64,000 bases of DNA from Bacillota bacterium (GTDB taxonomy: Bacteria; Bacillota; Sulfobacillia; Fermentithermobacillales; Fermentithermobacillaceae): the NCBI GenBank assembly GCA_050952065.1, contig JBMNKF010000003.1, forward strand, positions 28,985 through 92,984, written 5' to 3'. Positions 2,831-36,834 of this stretch are shown here, piece after piece. The notes beneath the pieces were generated by a model. That model searched no databases. It saw only the letters and a list, made by a program, of their open reading frames with translations, and was not told where the DNA came from. How positions within the stretch are numbered: position 1 is the stretch's first letter; each line of letters begins with the position of its first letter. The position numbers were made by a program, and so were the translations under genes.

Positions 2831-4606
2831 TTGGCTATTTTACGCAGGCTAACAGGCTTCGCCAAGCCGTATTGGAAGGTTTATGTAGGCATCTTTGTAA
2901 TTGTTGTCGCTATGACCGGGCTTGGTCTGCTGCAGCCTATGGTAACGCGGTGGCTGGTGGACGATGTGCTCGTCAACGGCCGCTGGGACATGCTGCTCTG
3001 GGGAGCTTTAGCCTTTGTGGGACTTTCTGTGGTAGGTGCCGTTCTTGCCTATATCCAAAGGTATGGTATGGCTTGGGCGGGTCAGCGGATAATCTACGAG
3101 ATCCGTAACCGCCTTTACGAGCATCTACAACAGTTGTCATTCAGTTTCTACGACGAGGCTCAAACCGGGCAACTCATGAGTCGGGTCACCGCAGATGTTG
3201 AACATACCCGAATGTTCCTTTCACACCAGCTCGTCCAGATCGTTGCAGCCACAGTGAGGTTCGTATCCACCATGGCTCTGATGCTGAGTCTCAACTGGCA
3301 GCTGACTTTGGTGGCCCTGATTCCCGTACCCATCCTTATATGGCGGGTGCAGATCTACGCGACCATCATAAGGCCGCGATACTGGTCCATCCAGCAACTG
3401 CTGGGCGTCATGACCGCCACTCTTCAGGAAAACATTACGGGGCAGCGCGTGGTCAAGTCGTTCGCTCGGAAGAAGCATGAGATGGAGAAATTCGAGCGCG
3501 ACAATATGGCGTACCTTAACAAGAACGTTGAAACAGTCCGGGCCTCTGCCTTTAACCAGTCACTAATGACTATGTTGACCGAAGCGTGTCTGGGTCTGGT
3601 GTTTTTCTGGGGAGGTCGTCAGGCCATCCGAGGCGAGCTTTCTGTAGGGACTCTCATCGCGTTCAACCAGCTGATCCTTCAGACTGTCCAGCAAGTGAGG
3701 ATGCTGGGGATGTGGGTTAGCGGCGCACAGAGGGCTATTGCGGCAGGGGAGAGGATTTACGAAATTCTAGACACCGAGGCAGCCGTCAAGGATAAGCCAG
3801 GAGCCAAAGCCATTGACACCGTTCGAGGCCACGTTGTCTTCGAAAACGTCGGTTTTGCGTACGATGGCGAGAACACGGTACTTGAGGATATCAACCTGAA
3901 TGTCAAACCCGGCGAAACGATAGCGATCTTGGGAGGCACTGGTTCAGGCAAATCAACTCTGATCAACCTGTTGCCAAGGTTCTATGACGTCACTAAAGGC
4001 AGGATTCTCCTTGACGGTCACGACATTCGCGATATCACACTGGAGAGTCTGCGTCGTCAGATCGGAGTAGTTACGCAAGAGACTTTCTTGTTCTCGGCGT
4101 CGCTCCGGGACAATATCGCCTATGGACGTCCTGATGCCACCGACGCCGAGATCATAGCCGCCGCAGAAGCAGCTCACATCGACGAATTCATCGATAGTCT
4201 GCCTAACGGGTACAACACAGTCATTGGCGAACGAGGAGTGGGGCTATCAGGTGGTCAGAGACAGCGTGTTGCCATCGCCAGAGCTTTGCTTATGGATGCC
4301 AAGATTCTTCTATTGGACGAGTCAACTTCCAGCGTAGACGTGGAAACCGAGATGCGGATCCAGGCTGCTTTCCAAAAACTTCTTCAAAACAGAACCTCCT
4401 TCATCATCGCTCAAAGGCTTTCGACTATCAGAAACGCCGACAGGATCATCGTTCTTGATAAAGGTAGAATCGTTGAGCAAGGGACGCACCGGGAGCTACT
4501 GGAAAAGGGCGGCATATACACGGCTATCTACGACTTGCAGTTTAGGAGTCAGGAAAGAGATGAGTTCGAGCGCGAAGTTGCGCTTGCCCAAGGAGGTGGT
4601 CACTAA
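2831..4606 (+). CDS. ABC transporter permease/ATP-binding protein (type I exporter half-transporter, heterodimer subunit 1)
   Basis: Six-helix transmembrane domain plus nucleotide-binding domain: Walker A GGTGSGKST, signature LSGGQRQRV, Walker B LLLDESTS. The H-loop histidine is replaced by glutamine (IIAQRLSTI). Confidence 0.85.
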   Translation: MAILRRLTGFAKPYWKVYVGIFVIVVAMTGLGLLQPMVTRWLVDDVLVNGRWDMLLWGALAFVGLSVVGAVLAYIQRYGMAWAGQRIIYEIRNRLYEHLQQLSFSFYDEAQTGQLMSRVTADVEHTRMFLSHQLVQIVAATVRFVSTMALMLSLNWQLTLVALIPVPILIWRVQIYATIIRPRYWSIQQLLGVMTATLQENITGQRVVKSFARKKHEMEKFERDNMAYLNKNVETVRASAFNQSLMTMLTEACLGLVFFWGGRQAIRGELSVGTLIAFNQLILQTVQQVRMLGMWVSGAQRAIAAGERIYEILDTEAAVKDKPGAKAIDTVRGHVVFENVGFAYDGENTVLEDINLNVKPGETIAILGGTGSGKSTLINLLPRFYDVTKGRILLDGHDIRDITLESLRRQIGVVTQETFLFSASLRDNIAYGRPDATDAEIIAAAEAAHIDEFIDSLPNGYNTVIGERGVGLSGGQRQRVAIARALLMDAKILLLDESTSSVDVETEMRIQAAFQKLLQNRTSFIIAQRLSTIRNADRIIVLDKGRIVEQGTHRELLEKGGIYTAIYDLQFRSQERDEFEREVALAQGGGH

Positions 4607-6408
4607 TGGGTATGCATGGACCTCGCGGGTTTGATGTCGGGAACATAGACCTTAAGGACCTCAACTTCTCTCATCTCAAGAGAACCAAAGAGTTTCTGTT
4701 GCCGTTCATCAAACAGCTGCTCTTGGCGATGGCCCTGGTAGGAGCCACTGCGTATCTTGGGCTACAGGGGCCGGTCATTATCGGTAAGATAGTGGATATT
4801 GTTCCCGTGGGCGACGAACAAGGGCTATATCGGTTGGTGGCCTTGTATTTCGTCATCCAAGGCATCTTGGCTGTTCTCAGGTACAGCCAGACTTACATCA
4901 TGTCCTGGACCGGACAGCAAATGTTGTACAGCATAAGGAAGCAGGTTTTCAGTCATATGCAGGACTTGGGGTTCGACTTCTACGACAGGCTTCAGGCTGG
5001 AAGGATCATGTCAAGGGTCGTCAACGACGTTGAATCCATTAACCAACTCTTGGCGGGCGGTTCCCTGAGTCTACTGGCAGACATTGTCACCATCGGCGGA
5101 ATCATCATCATCATGATTAGGCATAACGCGAGTCTGGCAATGGTCACCTTTACAACGGTGCCGCTCTTGTTCATCACTGTGTTTTTCCTGCGATCCAAGA
5201 TGACAAGGGCTTATCACTTGACCAGACGGCGGTTGGCTGACATCACTGCAAATCTCCAGGAATCCATATCCGGAATGCGGATTACTCAGGCATTTTCCAG
5301 GGAGGACGTAAACGCCTCTAAGTTTGACGACACTAACCAGCAGAACTTCAAAGCCCAGATGGATGCGGCAAGGTTGCATGCCTTGTTCTTCCCGTTGGTC
5401 GACATAGTCGGGTCAATCGGGGTGGCGCTTGTGTGCTACTACGGAGGACTTCAGATGTCATGGGGCAGTTCCATGATCTCAGTGGGCACGCTCACCCTTT
5501 TCGTGAACTACATCAACAGGTTTTTCTGGCCAATCCGAAACCTGGTGGACATATGGAACCAGGTTCTACAGGCCGCGGTTTCAGCCGAGCGAGTTTTTGA
5601 GGTTTTGGACACTGAGCCTAATGTCCGCGACAAGCCTGATGCCCAGGTTCTCGAGACCGTTAGGGGCCATGTGGAGTTCAAGAACGTGACCTTCGGTTAC
5701 AATCCTGAGTTGCCGGTTTTGCATTCGGTCAACCTCGAGGCCAAACCGGATGAAACCATAGCACTGGTAGGACCAACTGGCGCCGGCAAGTCCTCCATCA
5801 TTAATCTACTGTGCCGGTTTTACGACGTTCAGGATGGGCAGATTTTGGTCGATGGCCATGATATTCGGGATGTGACTCTAGAGTCTCTCAGGTCAAACTT
5901 GGGAATTGTTCTTCAGGACACGGTCATTTTCTCCGGCACCATCAGGGAAAACATCCGCTACGGCAGACTGGAAGCCACTGATGAGGAAGTGGAGGAAGCC
6001 GCTAAGACCGTTGGTGCTCACGACTTTATCATGAGATTGCCGGATGGTTACGATACTCAAGTGCGAGAGAGAGGGACTCGTTTGTCTGTGGGCCAACGGC
6101 AGCTTCTGTCGTTCGCCAGGGCGCTTCTGGCTGATCCGAGGATACTGATTCTGGATGAGGCGACTTCGTCGGTTGACGCTTACACGGAGCTTCAGATCCA
6201 GAGGGCGCTGGAGAGACTGTTCAAAGGTCGGACTTCTATCGTGATCGCTCACAGGCTTTCTACTATCCGCAATGCAGACAGAATCTATGTTATCGACCTC
6301 GGCGAGATAAAGGAAGTTGGCAACCACGAGGAGCTTATCGCCGCGAACGGCTTGTATCGGTCTCTGTATGAGAAGCAGTTTGCAGGGGAGCCGGTTAAGA
6401 TCGCGTAG
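4606..6408 (+). CDS. ABC transporter permease/ATP-binding protein (heterodimer subunit 2)
   Basis: Walker A GPTGAGKSS, a degenerate signature LSVGQRQ, Walker B ILILDEATS and an intact H-loop IAHRLSTI. The ATGG start overlaps the upstream partner's stop. Confidence 0.85.
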   Translation: MGMHGPRGFDVGNIDLKDLNFSHLKRTKEFLLPFIKQLLLAMALVGATAYLGLQGPVIIGKIVDIVPVGDEQGLYRLVALYFVIQGILAVLRYSQTYIMSWTGQQMLYSIRKQVFSHMQDLGFDFYDRLQAGRIMSRVVNDVESINQLLAGGSLSLLADIVTIGGIIIIMIRHNASLAMVTFTTVPLLFITVFFLRSKMTRAYHLTRRRLADITANLQESISGMRITQAFSREDVNASKFDDTNQQNFKAQMDAARLHALFFPLVDIVGSIGVALVCYYGGLQMSWGSSMISVGTLTLFVNYINRFFWPIRNLVDIWNQVLQAAVSAERVFEVLDTEPNVRDKPDAQVLETVRGHVEFKNVTFGYNPELPVLHSVNLEAKPDETIALVGPTGAGKSSIINLLCRFYDVQDGQILVDGHDIRDVTLESLRSNLGIVLQDTVIFSGTIRENIRYGRLEATDEEVEEAAKTVGAHDFIMRLPDGYDTQVRERGTRLSVGQRQLLSFARALLADPRILILDEATSSVDAYTELQIQRALERLFKGRTSIVIAHRLSTIRNADRIYVIDLGEIKEVGNHEELIAANGLYRSLYEKQFAGEPVKIA

Positions 6409-6466
6409 CGGATTGGCGGGCGTACGGAGGCGTAGCGTGTGTAGCTCGTGTAGCTCGTTTAGCTGG

Positions 6467-6690
6467 TCACGCCAGTGTAGCGGGTTACGCCAGTGTGGCG
6501 GGTTACGCAAGCGGGTCACGCCAGTGTAGCGGGTTACGCCAGTGTGGCGGGTTGCGCTAATGTAACGGGTTACGCCAGTGTGGCGGGTTACGCCAGTGTG
6601 GCGGGTTACGCCAGTGTGGCGGGTTACGCCAGTGTGGCGGGTTACGCCAATGTAACGGGTTACGCCAGTGTGGCGGCTGAGAGGCCAGTG
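6467..6690. repeat. 18-bp tandem repeat (consensus gggttacgccagtgtggc), about 12 copies
   Basis: The period was measured directly (6603 to 6621). A few variant units have gtaacg or gtagcg substitutions. Confidence 0.85.
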
Positions 6691-6734
6691 TAGCGGGTGA
6701 AGCTTGTGAGTAGCTTTAGTAGTACAAGTAGCGG

Positions 6735-6923
6735 GTGCCGTTCGCACCCCACCTTCTTTGCAGTGCGCTGGATGCAGCGTGAGTGGTGTTTGTAGTAGGA
6801 GTAGCGGGTGTAGCGTGAATGGTGTTAGTAGTGGGAGTAGCGGTGCCGTTCGTACCCCCACCTTCTTTGCAGTACACTGGATGCAGCGTGAGTGGTGTTT
6901 GTAGTAGGAGTAATGGGTGTAGT
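6735..6923. repeat. duplicated element of about 80 bp (gtgccgttcgcaccccaccttctttgcagtgcgctggatgcagcgtgagtggtgtttgtagtaggagta) with a 108-bp period
   Basis: Two near-identical copies at 6735 and 6843. They are flanked by recurring gtagcgggtg motifs. Confidence 0.8.
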
Positions 6924-7029
6924 TAAGCGGGAGTAGCGGGTGAAGACTGTGTAGCGCGAGTACCGGCGTGCACCGAACTAAGCCGGTGTAGGGTTACGCG
7001 GGAGTAGGGACGGCTTCGGCACATTTCTT

Positions 7030-7494
7030 GTGCCGACTCCGCCGTCCCGACGCAATTGTTGCGGCGAACCAGCCATCCCGATGCAATTGTTGCGCCGACT
7101 CCGCCGTCCCGATGCGATTCTTGCGCCGAACCGGCCATCCCGACGCAATTGTTGCGCCGAACCGGCCATTCCGATGCAATTCTTGTGCCGACTCCGCCGT
7201 CCCGATGCGATTCTTGCGGCGAACCAGCCATTCCGATGCAATTCTTGCGGCGAACCGGCCATCCCGACGCAATTGTTGCGCCGAACCGGCCATCCCAGCG
7301 CAATTCTTGCGGCGAACCGGCCATCCCGACGCAATTGTTGCGCCGACTCCGCCGTCCCGATGCGATTCTTGCGCCGAACGGGCCATCCCAGCGCAATTCT
7401 TGCGGCGAACCAGCCATTCGGATGCAATTCTTGCGGCGAACCGGCCATCCCGACGCAATTCCTGCGCCGACTCCGCCACCCCGATACATTTTTC
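7030..7494. repeat. 31-bp tandem repeat array, about 15 units, two interspersed variants (cgaaccggccatcccgacgcaatt and cgactccgccgtcccgatgcgatt)
   Basis: Period of 31 confirmed from gcaatt positions 7052, 7083, 7114 and 7145. There are no unique spacers. The GC-rich unit has no stop codon in any frame, so all six frames appear open. Confidence 0.85.
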
Positions 7495-7556
7495 GCGTCG
7501 TACGGTTGCAGCGTGTTTTTCCGGCCGCCCTCTCTACTGCCGCGGAAGACTCTATT

Positions 7557-10500
7557 CTACTGATACAGCGGCAAAGATGAGACTACCACACGGTTGGTGT
7601 ATGGAATGTCAGGTTGTGCCAGCCTAAGGCCCAGGTACGACTCGTTCAAATATACTGCTTGAGCCGTCACCTCAACCCTATTGACCCCTTGGCTTGTGGT
7701 GACAAGCGAGGCCTCGATTTCTGTTTGCGACGGATACCACCAAACAATCCGAACCCTATGGCCTCTTCGGAAGCTCAGTTGAGATGCGGGGCGCAGATGG
7801 ACAACTGTATCCGCATCTTCGTCCGAAAGGTCCGAAAGACTTTGTGCGAGAGAGTTCAAGACATCCTCCAGATTCTCCAAAGCGAAGGGGACGTGGGTTC
7901 CTCTGGGCATCGGCATGTCACGAATCTCAATGCTAAAGAAGGTTGGCCGCTTGTTCAGGGTCGCCCTCGCGTGGAAGGTGTTGCCGAATGTCTCTCCAGA
8001 AGACCTGTCTGCGGCGGTTTCAATCGTGGCCCACGGACAGTCGAGCCCCTCCTCGAAGCGGATGACTGGCTGACCCGTCTTGTCCCTGGGCACTGGTAAG
8101 CTGACAGGTGACGCGTACCCATTACTCTGGTTCTCCTCCAGTATGACTTCTCCCAACGGCATTGTGGCAGAGACTGTGGCATTTGAACTGAAACCGTAGT
8201 TTTCGCTTATATTTGCCGGGTACAGGAGCACAGACTTGTTTGCAGTAATGAGCCCCAAAAGGACGACCGCCAGAGGTGCCAGAAGAGTGCCCAGGTTGAG
8301 CAGGCGCAGGCGCCTCAGACCCACCGGTTGTGGCAGGCCAAACGTGGAAACAAGGCATCCGATGGCAACGCCGACGCAGAGGGCTGATGCAGTGTTCTCG
8401 GCAGTACTGTGGAACCAAGGGGACGATGCGCTCCACACCAGCCCAGGCCAAAGAGGTGTGAGGTACAAGAGTCTAGTGAGGTAAATCAGGATGCGCGGAG
8501 TCGCTGCGTCTTTCTTCCCTATGAACCGTGTAACGAGCACAGCCACGATTAACCCGGCTGTGGCTAGGAGCGAGCAACATAAATGCTCGGAACCTCTCAG
8601 ACCCATTCCCACGCATACTCCGCCCATGACTGCAAGTCCCCAGGCACCGGTACCGGGTAGTCCGCCTTGCAACTCTCTGTTGGTGCCGCACGATAAACCC
8701 GCGTCATCCTCCAACTTTCCAGACGCACTTCGCATCTCCTGGGAAGATGGATGTTTTTGCCCCGTATAGAGTGCGTCATCCTCCGCTTCTCCAGCCGGTT
8801 CCACCATCCCAGTCGGGTCTTGTAGCGCTTTGTTACCGTATGCTGGGTATGTTGTTGGTTGAGGCGGGTCATGCGGGTCATGTCCTGGTGTTTCGCGTGC
8901 TTGTAGCGCTCTGTAACCGTAAGGCGCGTCTGCCACAGCGTCAACCGGCCAGCCCACTGGTCCTGCCTGCCCTACTTGTCCGACATATTCCAACTGGTTG
9001 CGTTGCTCCAACTGGTTCCCCTGTCCCTGTGCGGACTTGTTGGCCGACGCGAATGCCCGGTTTGAGCCGAGACTGGCGGCCCTAGGTAGATTGGCTATCC
9101 GTGAACGCACCGCCCACAATCGAAGGAAACCTGCGGTGAACAGCAGCACAAATGAAGCCAAGAAAAGCACGGTTGGCCTTTCGGGATAGGCCCACGCCAC
9201 ATGTTCAGCGAGGGCGCTTCGGAAGACGACGAAGCGTATTCCCAAAGCCAAGAATGAAGCCAAAATGGCGCCGCCAACCCATCCAAGAGAGCCCCTCAGA
9301 CTTGGCCAACTGAGAGCGATGACCCCCGCTGCCAAGACGCCCATGACGATGCCTGCCCAGGCTAGATGTTGAGATTTCACCATGCGCATGTGACCTAGTG
9401 CCACAACAACCGTCACATTGCTGTAGACGGGGAGATCCGCATCTGATTGTGAGGATTCAATACCCAGTGAGGCGCGGTTTTCGGCGCAGAGCGACAGCAG
9501 AGCATCAACTACGCCTGTTGAACGTTGGTCTAAGGTAGACGTAGTAGCAGTATCGCCGGCATTGCCATGTCGTGCCGACTCGGAGAACCATGTTCTCAAC
9601 GGGCTATCTGTGGGGAGCCCAATGGTGATGGAGGGGGTTTCTGGGTCGAGAGAGTCCGATTCTCCAGTGAAGGTCCCATCGCCTATGAAGCTGTCAGAGT
9701 CCGCGTTGTTTTGCCGTGGTCCTTCGGTCATAGCTTGTAGCCACAGCGCTTGGCTGCGTCCTCCTGCGACGAAAGCGTCCAGGCCACTTTGCCTGAGGTG
9801 GTCGTAGACGGACTGCACCATCTTCACCGGTGTACAGGGCGCAGGGATTAAGGGGAGTCGCTCTGTCCCAGATAGATCGCCGATGACGATGACGCTCTTG
9901 ACGGCTCGACCGTTGTCCGAGAAGGTCTTCATGAGAGACTGCATCCCTGCCCCCATCTGATAGTGGCCTGACACAAAACCTATGGCTACGTTGACTTCGC
10001 TATGGCCAGAGTACTGTCTTGCGAATTCCAGAAGGACGGTTGCTGATTGATCCGTAAACCACGATTGATTAGCCCCCCGATCCGGAAGTGCGGCTGCTTC
10101 CTGGACTGACGCGCCTTGGATGTCCACCCCTTCAATGCCGCCATCGCCGGTGTCGAACGCCGGGTTACGGGGACTTGGTACGTCGCAAGGAGCGACGATA
10201 AGTAGGTCAATGGATGACGGTTCCTGTTTGAACGCCAACAGGTTTTCTCCTCGCACCCCAACGAGAGTGGTTCGGTTTGCCTCCTTGGAGTCTGCCCCCA
10301 TCACTGCCGAGTAGGCTTGAAGCTCTGTGGTCCATCCGGACTTCTGAAGCATTGCGCTTGCATGAGACAGGAACTGGCCAATCTCGTAGGAACCCGTTAG
10401 CCTGTTGGAGAATTGGGTCGGGTTGGCGCCGACGGGAAAGGCGGTGGCAGTAAGAAGGACGACGGTAGCCACACAACAAACAGCCAGGACCATTAATGGT

Positions 10501-10637
10501 TTGGTCTTGGTTGTGCCAGTGGCGCGGCTTGTGTGAACAGCGCGGTTTGCATCGGCTGCATCCGCTGCATCGGCTGTATCGGCTGCATCAGCGGTCTGGC
10601 CCGCGCCGGCGGTCCGGTCTGCATGGGCTTTAGTCAT
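7557..10637 (-). CDS. large polytopic membrane protein with an N-terminal degenerate M28-peptidase-like ectodomain
   Basis: 1026-aa ORF with an Ala/Asp-rich N-terminus and a signal anchor. The roughly 300-aa domain resembles the M28 fold (NLLAFKQEPSSIDLLIVAPCDV...AFDTGDGG...VNVAIGFVSGHYQMGAGMQSLM), but the canonical His/Asp/Glu metal ligands appear replaced. Two blocks of 3-5 transmembrane helices are separated by a Q/G/P-rich low-complexity segment, followed by a C-terminal domain of about 250 aa. Confidence 0.55.
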   Translation of the reverse strand: MTKAHADRTAGAGQTADAADTADAADAADANRAVHTSRATGTTKTKPLMVLAVCCVATVVLLTATAFPVGANPTQFSNRLTGSYEIGQFLSHASAMLQKSGWTTELQAYSAVMGADSKEANRTTLVGVRGENLLAFKQEPSSIDLLIVAPCDVPSPRNPAFDTGDGGIEGVDIQGASVQEAAALPDRGANQSWFTDQSATVLLEFARQYSGHSEVNVAIGFVSGHYQMGAGMQSLMKTFSDNGRAVKSVIVIGDLSGTERLPLIPAPCTPVKMVQSVYDHLRQSGLDAFVAGGRSQALWLQAMTEGPRQNNADSDSFIGDGTFTGESDSLDPETPSITIGLPTDSPLRTWFSESARHGNAGDTATTSTLDQRSTGVVDALLSLCAENRASLGIESSQSDADLPVYSNVTVVVALGHMRMVKSQHLAWAGIVMGVLAAGVIALSWPSLRGSLGWVGGAILASFLALGIRFVVFRSALAEHVAWAYPERPTVLFLASFVLLFTAGFLRLWAVRSRIANLPRAASLGSNRAFASANKSAQGQGNQLEQRNQLEYVGQVGQAGPVGWPVDAVADAPYGYRALQARETPGHDPHDPPQPTTYPAYGNKALQDPTGMVEPAGEAEDDALYTGQKHPSSQEMRSASGKLEDDAGLSCGTNRELQGGLPGTGAWGLAVMGGVCVGMGLRGSEHLCCSLLATAGLIVAVLVTRFIGKKDAATPRILIYLTRLLYLTPLWPGLVWSASSPWFHSTAENTASALCVGVAIGCLVSTFGLPQPVGLRRLRLLNLGTLLAPLAVVLLGLITANKSVLLYPANISENYGFSSNATVSATMPLGEVILEENQSNGYASPVSLPVPRDKTGQPVIRFEEGLDCPWATIETAADRSSGETFGNTFHARATLNKRPTFFSIEIRDMPMPRGTHVPFALENLEDVLNSLAQSLSDLSDEDADTVVHLRPASQLSFRRGHRVRIVWWYPSQTEIEASLVTTSQGVNRVEVTAQAVYLNESYLGLRLAQPDIPYTNRVVVSSLPLYQ

Positions 10638-10982: not shown

Positions 10983-11232
10983 TGTACGTTCCTTTTGTAC
11001 CTTTGGCTGTTAATCATGATTAGCTTGCTTCAGAGGTACGATTTCCTATCCTCTCCTGGGCTTTCACCGCTCGTGTCCAGGATTCCTTCGGCAAGTCTGT
11101 CGTGATGCCAACAGGAGTGATTTGCTGTACAGTTGTGTTACATATCTAGTAGGCAGAATACAGTGCCCGCAATAAGTCAGTAGCCATCAACGAGGAACAA
11201 GACACGGGTAGTAAGAAGTCAGCAGTGGGGAG

Positions 11233-11390
11233 TCAGTAGCGAGAGCCAGGAGCGAAAGTCAGCACCGAGACTCAGGAGCGAAAGTCAGTAGCGAGAGCCA
11301 GGAGCGAAAGTCAGCACCGAGACTCAGGAGCGAAAGTCAGCACCGAAACTCAGGAGTGAGGAGTCAGCAGCGACGAGAGTGAGCAGTAAG
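11233..11390. repeat. purine-rich tandem repeats with a 26-bp period (gagcgaaagtcagYRSSgagaSYcag) in a long low-complexity leader upstream of murD
   Basis: Seen directly. The whole 11100-11510 segment is built from agtcag/gagcga-type words. Confidence 0.75.
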
Positions 11391-11516
11391 AAGTCAGCAG
11401 TAGGAAATCGGCAGCGAGAGTCAAGAACGAGAAATCAAAAGCGAGAACCCAGAGTGAGAACCCAGAGCGAGAAGACAGAGGGTAGAAGCCAGTAGCGCGA
11501 AGCGAGGGATGTGAGG

Positions 11517-13874
11517 ATGCCGCGAGAAACGAGGGATTCTGAATCGTCCCGAGGTTCCTTGGGCACGTTGGGCAGGTTTTGTGGGCGTGAAGTCGCCATC
11601 GTAGGGATGGGCAAGTCCAATCAGGCTCTGTGCCGGTATTTGGCCAGAGAGGGCGCCGTCATAACCTGCTTTGACAGAAAAACCGCCGAAGAACTGGGCG
11701 ACGTATATACAGAACTCAGTCGCTTGGGCGTCAAGTGGAGCCTTGGCCCTGACTACCTCTCAGGTCTTCCTTCCTTCAAGTGGATCTTCCTCACTCCGGG
11801 CATGAAAAAGAGTCTGCCGGAAATCGTTGCCGCAAAGGAGAACGGAGCCATAGTCTCCGGGGAAATTGCCCTTTTCCTCGAGCGATGCAAGGCCAAAGTC
11901 TGTGGGATAACCGGGAGCGCGGGAAAGACCACCACGTCCACGCTGACAGGCATGATGCTGAAAGAGAGTCTACCTGGAGTGCCCGTTTACGTGGGCGGCA
12001 ACATCGGTTCAGTTCTGATCGAGGAAGTTGACGATATACCGCCCGAAGTTTTGGTAGTTCTTGAGCTTTCCAGTTTTCAGCTTGAACTCTGCAACCGAAG
12101 CCCAGAAATCTCAGTCATTCTCAATCTGCGCCCAAACCATCTGGATGTTCACGATTCTTTCCAAGATTATGTGCAGGCAAAGAAGAGAATCTATCAGTTC
12201 CAGAACCGAGAAGATTGGTGCATCCTCAACCAAGACGACCCCATTACTGGGGCAATGGTCGGGGAGTGTCCGGGAAATACCGCCCGATTTTCCACTGACG
12301 AAAAGGGACATAGTGCTCAAGGAAATCGAGATGTAGGGACGCCCAGCGCTCGGGCGTGGCTTGACGGAAACGATCTGAAAGTGGAGATCCAAGGCGCCGA
12401 GCATTACCGCAGTGACAGCCACGTCGATGGCCATAGCGATATTCGCAGCGATGGCTCCAGCGGAAGCCCCAGCGGTAGCCTCAGTGGAAGCCGCAGCGAT
12501 AGTCGCAGCGATAGCCGCAGGGGTAGCCCTAACGAGATCCACAGTGGTAGACATAACGACAGTGACAGCCATACGCCAGCCCGCACGAACGGTCCCGTAA
12601 CCGTTGCGTCTCGTGATGATTTTCTCGTTCCCGGAGACCACAATATCTCAAACGCACTTGCCGCCAGCCTCGCAGCGCTATTAATGGGGGGTAACCCGCA
12701 GGGAATAAGAAGAGCCATCCGGTCTTTCCGAGGAGTCGAACACAGGATAGAGTTGGTGAGAAAAGTCAACGGAGTTACCTACTACAACGATTCTATCGCC
12801 ACGTCGCCGGACCGAACCGAAGCCTTTCTCCATGCCGTTCCTGGCCCGTTGGTTCTGATCCTTGGAGGATACGATAAGGGGATCCCGTTCGACGGACTAG
12901 CCCAGAAGATAGTGGCCCGGGAGAATGTAGCGGTTGTGACTCTGGGCAAGACAGCCCCGCTAATTGAAGCGGCGATTGATAGAGCAGTTGATGCCGCAAA
13001 CAGAAGAACAAGCCAAGGGACCAGACGATCCTCCGAGACGGCTGGCCGAGGGCGACGCAAACCCGATGTGACCAGAGCCGGCAGCCTCGAGGAGGCCGTC
13101 AGAATCGCCAGCGCTAAGGCTCGTCCTGGCTGGTCCGTAGGTTTGTCTCCGGCGTGCGCCAGTTACGACATGTTTAGGAGTTTTGAGGAGCGCGGGCAGA
13201 TGTTCAAGGACATAGTGGCCAAGATTCCGGATCCAAGTGCCATCTATGAGGCCCTGGCGCCCCACTATCCTGGCGTGAAGTCGCGACTATTGGAGACTAG
13301 TAAGGGCAATCCTGTTGATACACTGGTGGCAACGATTTTGTCACAGGCTACCAACGACAATGTGAGTACCAAAGCTTTCGCCAATCTGAAACAGACGTTT
13401 TCCGATTGGGATTCGCTCCTGGAGGCGGACGCCGCTACTGTGGAGAAAGCCCTGAAGCCGGGAGGGCTCTACCGTGAAAAGACCGCTGCTCTCAAGGCCG
13501 CTCTCAATCAGATCAAGAAAGATTTCGGAGAAGTCACCCTCGAACCCTTGAGGCAGATGACCGTCCATGAAGCCTTCAGGTATCTGACCTCACTTAGGGG
13601 CGTCGGCCCGAAGACTGCCGCTTGTGTGTTGGCATTTGGTTTGGGTAAGCCTGCCTTTCCTGTGGATACCCATGTCCTCCGAATTGCCCGCAGATTGGGC
13701 TTGGTGCCCCAGAAGGCTCAGGCCTCTAAGGCTCAGGAAATCCTGGAGACGATCACGCCTGATGACCTCAAAATGCCCCTTCACCTTACTCTCATTGAAC
13801 ACGGCAGAAAAGTGTGTTCGTCATCAAGACCCAAGTGCGGCATCTGCCCCCTTCGCGGCTGCTGTTCCGAGTAA
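11517..13874 (+). CDS. murD: MurD (UDP-N-acetylmuramoyl-L-alanine--D-glutamate ligase) fused in frame to a C-terminal endonuclease III (Nth; HhH-GPD plus 4Fe-4S) domain
   Basis: Mur ligase motifs are present: VAIVGMGKSN, GITGSAGKTTT and the C-terminal SPACASYDMFRSFEERGQMF. The same frame then runs directly into an Nth-like domain (ILSQATNDNVSTKAF; LRGVGPKTAACVL; VDTHVLRIARRLGL; the C-X6-C-X2-C-X5-C motif CSSSRPKCGICPLRGCC) with no stop codon and no linker. A Ser/Asp/Arg/Gly-rich insertion of about 60 aa sits within the MurD part (12400-12590). Confidence 0.7.
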   Translation: MPRETRDSESSRGSLGTLGRFCGREVAIVGMGKSNQALCRYLAREGAVITCFDRKTAEELGDVYTELSRLGVKWSLGPDYLSGLPSFKWIFLTPGMKKSLPEIVAAKENGAIVSGEIALFLERCKAKVCGITGSAGKTTTSTLTGMMLKESLPGVPVYVGGNIGSVLIEEVDDIPPEVLVVLELSSFQLELCNRSPEISVILNLRPNHLDVHDSFQDYVQAKKRIYQFQNREDWCILNQDDPITGAMVGECPGNTARFSTDEKGHSAQGNRDVGTPSARAWLDGNDLKVEIQGAEHYRSDSHVDGHSDIRSDGSSGSPSGSLSGSRSDSRSDSRRGSPNEIHSGRHNDSDSHTPARTNGPVTVASRDDFLVPGDHNISNALAASLAALLMGGNPQGIRRAIRSFRGVEHRIELVRKVNGVTYYNDSIATSPDRTEAFLHAVPGPLVLILGGYDKGIPFDGLAQKIVARENVAVVTLGKTAPLIEAAIDRAVDAANRRTSQGTRRSSETAGRGRRKPDVTRAGSLEEAVRIASAKARPGWSVGLSPACASYDMFRSFEERGQMFKDIVAKIPDPSAIYEALAPHYPGVKSRLLETSKGNPVDTLVATILSQATNDNVSTKAFANLKQTFSDWDSLLEADAATVEKALKPGGLYREKTAALKAALNQIKKDFGEVTLEPLRQMTVHEAFRYLTSLRGVGPKTAACVLAFGLGKPAFPVDTHVLRIARRLGLVPQKAQASKAQEILETITPDDLKMPLHLTLIEHGRKVCSSSRPKCGICPLRGCCSE

Positions 13875-35230: not shown

Positions 35231-35512
35231 CCAAAGCCCGTGAAGGGGACGGTAGGCGTTAGCCAGGGTTCAGAGAGTCGCCGTCAGGTGAGAGGCGATC
35301 CCTAGTGCGCCGTTAGCACCCCTGAGGCGCGCATCGGAACGCTTTGGGCCCTCGAGAGGTTTCTTAGGGAGAATAGATCCGGCCCCGGGTGAGTATGGTG
35401 CGACGGATAGTCCCGTTAGAGGCGTTTGAGGCGGCCGCGTCTGGCCGCGCATCAAGGTGGCACCACGAGAGCAGGCAATCTCGTCCTTGGAGATTGCCTG
35501 CTTTTTGTTTTC
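35231..35512 (+). promoter_or_regulatory. T-box riboswitch leader of serS
   Basis: An AGAGAG bay and a T-box-like element AAGGUGGCACCACG (35454-35468) are immediately followed by the terminator hairpin GCAGGCAATCTC/GAGATTGCCTGC plus TTTTTGTTTT (35471-35512). The specifier could be UCC or AGC (both Ser) and is not resolved. Confidence 0.55.
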
Positions 35513-35558
35513 GGTAGTCCCAAAGAGGCAAGTCGAGACATTCGGGAGGTATGGAGTC

Positions 35559-36834
<1,276 letters not shown>

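Follow-up and report, generated by a model that had tools for sequence, protein, structure and literature searches.

The locus considered here raises the question of what a block of abutting 31-bp repeats represents at the point where two bacterial genes converge: a coding sequence, a functional RNA or DNA element, or a minisatellite. The host is an uncultured, spore-forming Firmicute with a GC content of about 55%, whose nearest named relatives are 'Candidatus Fermentithermobacillaceae' and Ca. Fermentithermobacillus carboniphilus. The window, that is, the whole 64-kb stretch of DNA that was analysed, carries housekeeping genes (DnaE, PfkA, RimP-NusA-IF2, and TruB) together with genes for a CotF-like coat protein and sigma factor/RsgI genes, and a gene-family scan of the ORFs neighbouring the array found no plasmid or phage genes. 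The context of the array is chromosomal. An iteron or centromere array was rejected on the basis of this housekeeping context (DnaE, PfkA, NusA, and IF2) and the lack of plasmid similarity; in addition, a family scan of the 29 larger ORFs up to 45.3 kb gave no gene of the Rep/ParA/ParB type. Similarly, blastn of the array against 72,556 plasmids, and phages, gave no similarity, and a plasmid or phage origin was rejected.

Structure of the Junction and of the Array

The features of the junction are as follows, with coordinates counted from the first nucleotide of the window:

4606–6408, + strand: ABC transporter gene (fused permease and ATPase), the second of a pair (ABC_membrane 8.5e-44, ABC_tran 1.7e-32)
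6460–6698, no strand: 18-bp array of 13.4 copies in the 3' region of the ABC gene; the unit can form TGGCG-GGTTA-CGCCA
6716–6922, + strand: 109-bp repeat of 1.9 copies, each with a terminator-like hairpin and a T-rich tail (6733–6749 and 6842–6858)
7004–7051, no strand: boundary hairpin made of an inverted partial unit (7007–7023), a 5-nt loop, and the 5' 19 nt of the first B unit
7030–7494, no strand: 31-bp tandem array of 15 units (10 of type A and 5 of type B)
7495–7556, − strand: 62-nt spacer between the stop codon of the 1026-aa gene and the array
7557–10637, − strand: gene for a 1026-aa multi-pass membrane protein of unassigned family, with the array 3' of it

Since the ABC gene on the + strand ends at 6408 and the 1026-aa gene lies on the − strand, the junction is convergent. 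The original prediction had placed the array at such a junction, directly 3' of the 1026-aa gene, and this position was borne out, the array lying 62 nt from the stop codon (7557–7559). The 1026-aa protein contains about seven hydrophobic segments; no Pfam family was found for it, only two homologues were detected, and its C-terminus and stop position are conserved in the closest relative (L018). The junction measures 1148 bp, and tandem repeats fill 79% of it, in three unrelated arrays of 18 bp × 13, 109 bp × 2, and 31 bp × 15. All arrays of the window that score above 100 in Tandem Repeats Finder fall between 6.4 and 12.5 kb. The 18-bp array (6460–6698, × 13) and the 109-bp repeat (6716–6922, × 1.9) had gone unmentioned in the original prediction. 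The first copy of the 109-bp repeat folds at −11.4 kcal/mol and the second is degenerate; the hairpins of this repeat are likely terminators of the ABC operon.

The 31-bp array consists of 15 head-to-tail units without spacers, as can be seen when 7030–7494 is printed in a 31-bp register. All units have the same direct orientation and start exactly 31 bp apart. Tandem Repeats Finder reported 7025–7484 with a period of 31, 14.8 copies, 79% matches, 0% indels, and a score of 528, as well as a second period of 93 bp (4.8 copies, 83% matches). Type A, GCGsCGAACCrGCCATyCCGAyGCAATTsTT, accounts for 10/15 units, and type B, GyGCCGACTCCGCCGTCCCGAyGCrATTsTT, for the other 5/15, in the order B A B A A B A A A A B A A A B. 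The earlier description of about 15 units in two subtypes, including their order and their sequences, is confirmed by the register, and its period and approximate copy number also by the repeat finder. The accompanying remark that B units are never consecutive is true but unremarkable, as this has a chance of 0.15 for 5 B among 15 units.

Each unit is a 28-bp imperfect inverted repeat (TTGCGsCG-N12-CGrCGCAA) followed by a 3-bp spacer, and the unit junctions read as an interrupted inverted repeat, CGCAA-TTS-TTGCG. A small palindrome had been described at every junction; the inverted repeat does exist, but it is interrupted and exact at only 6 of the 14 junctions, as CGCAATTGTTGCG at four and as CGCAATTCTTGCG at two more, while the remaining eight carry 1–2 mismatches. 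Sixteen of the 31 unit columns are invariant, including most of GC.ATT..TG.G.CGA, and a 16-mer core of the unit matches 14 times in the array compared with 0.09 expected from shuffles of the window.

Locus Specificity

The original prediction held that the array would lose interest if its unit turned out to be a common dispersed repeat of the REP/BIME type. A covariance model of the 31-bp unit was run on the 64-kb window and on the syntenic loci of relatives; the units of the array score 45–53 bits and the rest of the window at most 12 bits, and the unit was not found in the syntenic loci. Similarly, the 16-mer core has no match in the window outside the array. A degenerate 22-mer of the unit was then scanned against 185,579 species-representative genomes, 241 M metagenome records, and viral contigs, giving 7, 7, and 0 single matches, respectively, and no array; the single matches lie in unrelated contexts on inspection, and about 4 chance matches would be expected in the 185,579 genomes by our own arithmetic, which is not the output of a tool. 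A dispersed REP/BIME-like repeat was therefore rejected, since the unit has no further copy in the 64-kb window of this genome and forms no array in the public collections searched. A literature search found no pertinent work on 31-bp bacterial tandem repeats.

Allelic Variation between Near-Identical Assemblies

Four assemblies of one population span or nearly span the junction. Over 11 kb, assembly L002 shows 2 SNPs relative to the window, and its array is identical. Assembly L001 differs by 2 SNPs outside the repeats in 16 kb, yet lacks two 31-bp units (62 bp) and one 18-bp unit; by inspection the missing units are units 11–12 of the window, while automatic alignment places the gap at 7246–7307. 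In assembly L027, 2 other SNPs and the absence of one 18-bp unit are accompanied by a cluster of six substitutions at 7186–7199; these give the B-type unit 6 an A-type 5' half, which reads as a conversion-like patch. The 31-bp alleles seen are therefore 15 units, 13 units, and 15 units with one half-converted, and the copy number of the 18-bp array also varies, being one unit lower in both L001 and L027. The repeats thus evolve much faster than their flanks, since whole-unit indels and exchange between units have occurred alongside only about 2 flanking SNPs.

As judged from these alleles, which come from metagenome assemblies of unknown read length, the pattern is that of a classical minisatellite or VNTR. 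A comparison of copy number between strains had been proposed as a check on the array, and it gave 13 versus 15 units in metagenome assemblies. Short-read Logan contigs break at the junction arrays, so some of the copy-number differences could be assembly errors. An artefact of k-mer assembly (31 being a common k) was rejected because the units have diverged from one another and separate JGI assemblies contain the same array; the 31-bp repeats mentioned in the 'Logan' paper concern the trimming of circular contigs and are unrelated to the array. It had also been suggested that such variation might mark a contingency locus. Phase variation in the classical sense is unlikely, since the array lies 3' of both flanking genes and is in neither a promoter nor a reading frame.

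Coding Capacity

On each strand the array is crossed in three frames by ORFs of 156–199 aa, the JGI gene callers placed ORFs there, and one ORF (6978–7448) is, from its coordinates, in phase with the 1026-aa gene. These observations would suit a protein of 31-residue repeats or a read-through extension of the 1026-aa protein. However, the openness of all six frames, which the original prediction had correctly noted and regarded as artificial, is unremarkable, because, among random 31-mers matched in composition, about 19% give repeats without a stop in any of the six frames. Because the period of 31 is not a multiple of 3, each frame reads the unit in all three phases. No Pfam or PADLOC match above noise was found in any of the six frames; the gene callers placed the ORF on opposite strands in L001 and L002; the 62-bp difference between alleles is not a multiple of 3 and shifts the frame; and the 1026-aa gene ends at the ancestral stop position, which L018 shares. 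The earlier view that the array is not coding is upheld by the six-frame searches, the opposite-strand gene calls, and the 62-bp indel, and a protein-coding repeat is very improbable.

The Same Junction in Related Genomes

The gene order around the junction is conserved: DnaE, TldD/PmbA, Mur ligase/HhH-GPD, an AtpI-like protein, and the membrane protein, followed by the convergent ABC, ABC, MazE, sigma, and RsgI genes. In more distant relatives the junction is 5–104 bp long and holds at most one terminator hairpin. For instance, the junction of L020 is 95 bp with one hairpin, GGGGCAGC-GCAA-GCTGCCCC, and a T run; that of L036 is 104 bp with one perfect hairpin with a 16-bp stem; and that of L039 is only 5 bp. 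In the closest relative, L018, whose ABC protein is 88% identical, two genes are inserted at the junction (HTH/peptidase M78 and DUF4411), and no tandem arrays were found there. The closest relatives with an intact or near-intact junction, L035 and L032 (ABC proteins 81% and 80%, respectively), do have arrays, and these differ from those of the window: L035 has a hairpin directly followed by a 12-bp × 4.5 and an 11-bp × 3.5 array, and L032 has a 93-bp × 4.4 array with a sub-period near 31 nt, each unit of which contains a GGGCCC-AAAAT-GGGCCC hairpin.

Homology of the window unit with the L035 and L032 arrays was rejected, as Smith–Waterman scores against shuffles gave p values of 0.18 and 0.98, respectively, and the unit model had no matches in them. 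By eye, these arrays share GCGGCGAACC and CCGTCCCG..GCAAT with the window unit, a resemblance that is not significant. The possibility that the repeats of the window are remnants of genes found at the junction of relatives (M78/DUF4411, aminotransferase) was also rejected, tblastn giving no similarity. Sequence comparison suggests that, within a single sub-clade of Fermentithermobacillaceae-like Firmicutes, arrays arise repeatedly at this 3' position of the junction and turn over fast.

Arrays occur at the junction in three members of this sub-clade, two of them with a period near 31 bp, and this could mean that the presence of an array is selected and not just tolerated. A phased array of hairpin units might then be under selection while its sequence turns over and its period of about 31 bp, or three helical turns, persists, as in the window (31 bp × 15) and in L032 (93 bp, or 3 × 31, × 4.4). 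Such an array may be a structural element that is not sequence-specific and is built by amplifying terminator hairpins, and it might serve to insulate where converging transcription collides, or offer a nucleoid protein a landing pad. We consider selection of this kind quite improbable.

Folding, Probable Transcription, and Possible RNA Function

The original prediction recommended secondary-structure prediction, which showed the RNA fold of the array to be unexceptional and the boundary hairpin alone to be strong. The fold of the whole array is barely more stable than those of dinucleotide shuffles (z −1.98 for the − strand, −1.69 for the + strand); single-unit hairpins are weak, at −5 to −8 kcal/mol and z of about −0.5, no better than shuffles; and G-quadruplex-aware folding of the units brought no gain. 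An exceptional RNA structure was rejected on these values. The hairpin at 7004–7051, at the end of the array distal to the 1026-aa gene, has 16–18 base pairs; its folding energy is −31.6 kcal/mol for the + strand (z −6.5) and −30.7 kcal/mol for the − strand (z −5.4), values that none of the shuffles reached, and it is the only strong structure of the array region. It lacks a U tail. This hairpin is the best candidate for a terminator serving the 1026-aa gene on the − strand, as well as for the sequence that seeded the array.

No terminator-like structure was found in the 62-nt spacer (7495–7556), the region 7480–7560 folding no better than shuffles (z +0.3 and +0.9), and no terminator-like site on the − strand was found anywhere in 6409–7556. 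Since nothing terminator-like separates the stop codon from the array, the array is probably transcribed within the 3' UTR of the 1026-aa gene, up to the 7004–7051 hairpin.

A 3' UTR position leads to the suggestion that the array is a functional RNA element, the many small hairpins of which, with the strong 7004–7051 stem as a cap, would shield the 1026-aa mRNA against 3' exonucleases, bring about termination, or insulate the convergent units. The likely read-through into the array and the strongest hairpin at its distal end agree with this, as do the mirrored layout on the other side of the junction (ABC gene, then the 18-bp hairpin array, then terminator-like hairpins) and the arrays in the same 3' zone of relatives. 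In addition, the stem of the junction inverted repeat is kept in 95.6% of cells, compared with 21–73% when the partner columns are slid. The kept inverted repeat could reflect weak selection for a structure or a binding site, and it is also expected from the common descent of the units. Comparison across the units revealed no compensatory changes in this stem; the changes are one-sided, and its three variable positions are all G–U-compatible on the + strand, so that the wobble-compatible variants favour the strand opposite to the mRNA. Moreover, the per-unit hairpins and the whole-array fold stand at or barely above the level of shuffles, the boundary hairpin has no U tail, and the sequence is not conserved in relatives. 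A functional 3' UTR element is therefore unlikely.

Another RNA-based possibility is the antitoxin array of a type III toxin–antitoxin system (ToxI-like), or an array of other small-RNA genes. The tandem repeats of about 31 nt and a 161-aa ORF (7614–8099, + strand) lying 120 nt downstream superficially resemble a toxI–toxN layout. However, this ORF has no Pfam or PADLOC match and is antisense inside the conserved C-terminal coding region of the 1026-aa gene, and a search for a promoter-like site found none. Known ToxI-type arrays contain 2–6 near-identical repeats, far fewer than the 15 diverged units here. Rfam gave no match at gathering score in the window and none even at E ≤ 1 in 6300–7700, by which a known RNA family was rejected. 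A ToxI-like or small-RNA array is extremely improbable.

Possible DNA-Binding Function

It has been proposed in the original prediction that the array could be protein-binding, as an alternative to a minisatellite. The inverted half-sites (TTGCGsCG...CGrCGCAA or CGCAA-N3-TTGCG) could be recognised by a dimeric protein, with the array serving as a landing pad, a titration site, or a nucleoid-organising site. The period is regular, and the inverted-repeat core is conserved (the 16 invariant columns of 31). DNA has a helical repeat of 10.4 bp. A spacing of 31 bp, close to 3 × 10.4 bp, corresponds to roughly three turns and would place all sites on one face of the helix; the sub-period of the L032 array is also near 31 nt. 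However, the alternative gained no positive support, since the 13-mer and 28-mer inverted repeats have only chance-level matches elsewhere in the 64 kb, and nothing thus points to a regulon. The genes next to the array include no partition or replication gene and no obvious cognate regulator, the orthologous junctions of relatives have no conserved sequence, and alleles with two units lost or one converted coexist. The conservation between units is expected from recent duplication alone. A protein-binding array is rather improbable.

Proposed Origin of the Array

The array is most readily explained as a lineage-specific, non-coding, and hypervariable minisatellite (VNTR) between convergent genes, probably neutral or nearly neutral and derived from a hairpin arm, a reading that we hold with some confidence. 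The minisatellite half of the original prediction is supported by the locus-specific unit and by copy number and composition that differ between near-identical strains. According to the mechanism that we envisage, one arm of the terminator hairpin of the junction, with adjacent sequence, would have been duplicated repeatedly by slipped-strand or unequal-recombination events, producing the array. The very stable 7004–7051 stem, in which an inverted partial unit pairs with the first unit, would be a relic of the seeding hairpin. The − strand transcript of the 1026-aa gene would carry the array as its 3' UTR and end at this hairpin, and the array would go on evolving by gain, loss, and conversion of units. 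It presumably persists because its position is free of coding or promoter constraint, and any effect that it has would be generic, such as spacing or weak hairpins, and not specific to its sequence.

Comparison with Known Repeat Systems and Significance

The array belongs to the known class of bacterial intergenic VNTRs or minisatellites and is probably an ordinary member of it. Like the intergenic loci used in MLVA, it consists of spacer-less, head-to-tail units of tens of bp at an intergenic site, with diverged variants interspersed, and it shows whole-unit changes and conversion-like patches between close strains. It departs from the usual VNTR in that its only source is metagenome assemblies from an uncultured Firmicute, that it sits in a cluster of three unrelated arrays where a junction of about 100 bp has grown to 1148 bp, and that a strong hairpin links its first unit to a flanking inverted partial copy. 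It is mildly unusual in this pile-up of three arrays, in the hairpin between first unit and flank, and in the non-homologous arrays at the same place in related lineages.

REP/BIME elements in E. coli act in 3' protection of mRNA, termination, or insulation. The array resembles these enterobacterial elements in its short, imperfectly palindromic unit, its site in 3' untranslated intergenic sequence, and a possible 3' hairpin barrier; however, it is confined to a single locus in 64 kb, no arrays of its unit occur in public genomes, its hairpins are weak, and its units are all direct, whereas BIMEs alternate in orientation. MIRUs are likewise intergenic tandem minisatellites with a copy number that varies between strains, but they are 40–100 bp long, occupy dozens of loci between co-directional operon genes, and have reading frames bridging the flanking genes, while the unit in the window is 31 bp, at a single locus in a convergent junction. 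The length of 31 bp and the partial dyad symmetry are within the range of CRISPR repeats. However, the units abut without spacers, as the original prediction had observed in setting CRISPR aside, and Pfam and PADLOC scans of the flanking genes found no cas genes, only ABC transporter, unknown membrane protein, Mur ligase/HhH-GPD, and TldD/PmbA families. ToxI-type repeats are also tandem, about 30–40 nt long, and without spacers; the array differs from them in having no co-directional toxin gene, the only downstream ORF being without a family match, and no Rfam match.

If the minisatellite reading is right, the practical value of the array is modest. It would be a ready strain marker (VNTR) for tracking populations of this uncultured anaerobic Firmicute across metagenomes. 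If the presence of an array were selected, phased hairpin repeats between convergent genes would have a structural role, and the finding would matter more. The locus also serves as a warning for assembly and annotation, where short-read contigs break at the array and gene callers invent ORFs on either strand, and it would be a clean example of an intergenic junction that has grown tenfold by tandem amplification beside a terminator hairpin.

Repeats and insertions at the convergent junction

The junction between the converging ABC transporter and 1026-aa membrane-protein genes, where the 31-bp array lies, is a hotspot for repeats and also for insertions. The features considered here, in the window and in its three nearest relatives (L018, the closest, followed by L035 and L032), are as follows:

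Window 6460–6698: 18-bp tandem array, 13.4 units, beginning about 50 nt past the ABC transporter stop codon
Window 6716–6922: 109-bp repeat, 1.9 copies, 89% match
L032 (GCA_964646385.1, ABC protein 80% identical) 4186–4597: 93-bp array, 4.4 units, 92% match, immediately 3' of the ABC gene
L035 (GCA_964643285.1, ABC protein 81% identical) 4570–4704: 12-bp (4.5 units) and 11-bp (3.5 units) arrays in a 204-bp junction
L035 1–339: 104-bp array, 3.3 units, at the contig start, upstream of a MazE-like gene
L018 12149–13782: inserted HTH/peptidase-M78 (ImmA/IrrE-like) gene and DUF4411 gene, at the same convergent junction as the window array

The period of the L032 array equals three times 31 bp and matches the higher-order period of the 31-bp array in the window; the sequence similarity between these two arrays is not significant. 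The 93-bp unit in L032 divides into three sub-units, each about 31 nt long and with CCGTCCATGG at its end, and the array contains a GGGCCC-AAAAT-GGGCCC hairpin. A two-component system has also been inserted at this junction in L032. In L035, the 12-bp and 11-bp arrays come right after a long hairpin; a tendency to form intergenic arrays may be a general trait of the sub-clade with this relative.

The 18-bp array is one unit shorter in L001 and L027, two metagenome assemblies of near-identical strains, indicating that it is likewise variable in copy number. Its + strand is G+T-rich, and each unit is able to form TGGCG-GGTTA-CGCCA. The 109-bp repeat has the look of an ABC-operon terminator that was duplicated. 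On the + strand, a terminator-like hairpin, GGGTGC-CGTTC-GCACCC, is present in each copy, with CACCTTCTTT after it; copy 2 is degenerate. As for the ABC transporter itself (4606–6408), the PADLOC model mad3 matches its ATPase region (6.9e-30), a match that most likely reflects generic ABC-ATPase similarity rather than a defence system.

Neighbouring genes and intergenic regions

Further features were found elsewhere in the window:

11231–11509: purine-rich 13/26/52-bp tandem array, stopping 2 nt ahead of the Mur-ligase/HhH-GPD start codon
11511–13874: fusion of a MurD-like ligase and an HhH-GPD DNA-glycosylase domain, a single 787-aa ORF
35457–35978: seryl-tRNA synthetase N-terminal domain alone, a short ORF of 173 aa
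37495–38070: prolyl-oligopeptidase S9 fragment, a short ORF of 191 aa

The purine-rich array, whose copy in L001 is identical, sits inside a 528-bp gap; L018 and the more distant relatives L019–22, L036 and L039 have an aminotransferase gene in place of this gap, and the window is without that gene. The fusion downstream is also present in L018 (724 aa); in more distant relatives, the ligase and the HhH-GPD protein are encoded as separate neighbours (506 aa and 261 aa in L019–22). An in-frame 12/60-bp repeat (12435–12547) lies between the middle and C-terminal domains of the Mur ligase in the 787-aa ORF.

The 1026-aa membrane protein (7557–10637) is poorly conserved, with only 2 homologues among 5.8 billion proteins. 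A 9-bp coding repeat near the 5' end of its gene (10548–10589) encodes ADAADTADAADAADA, and about 120 aa of inserted low-complexity sequence, at roughly residues 539–657, are absent from the L018 orthologue. Possible explanations for the two short ORFs, each covering only part of its family, are a pseudogene, a frameshift or a split gene.
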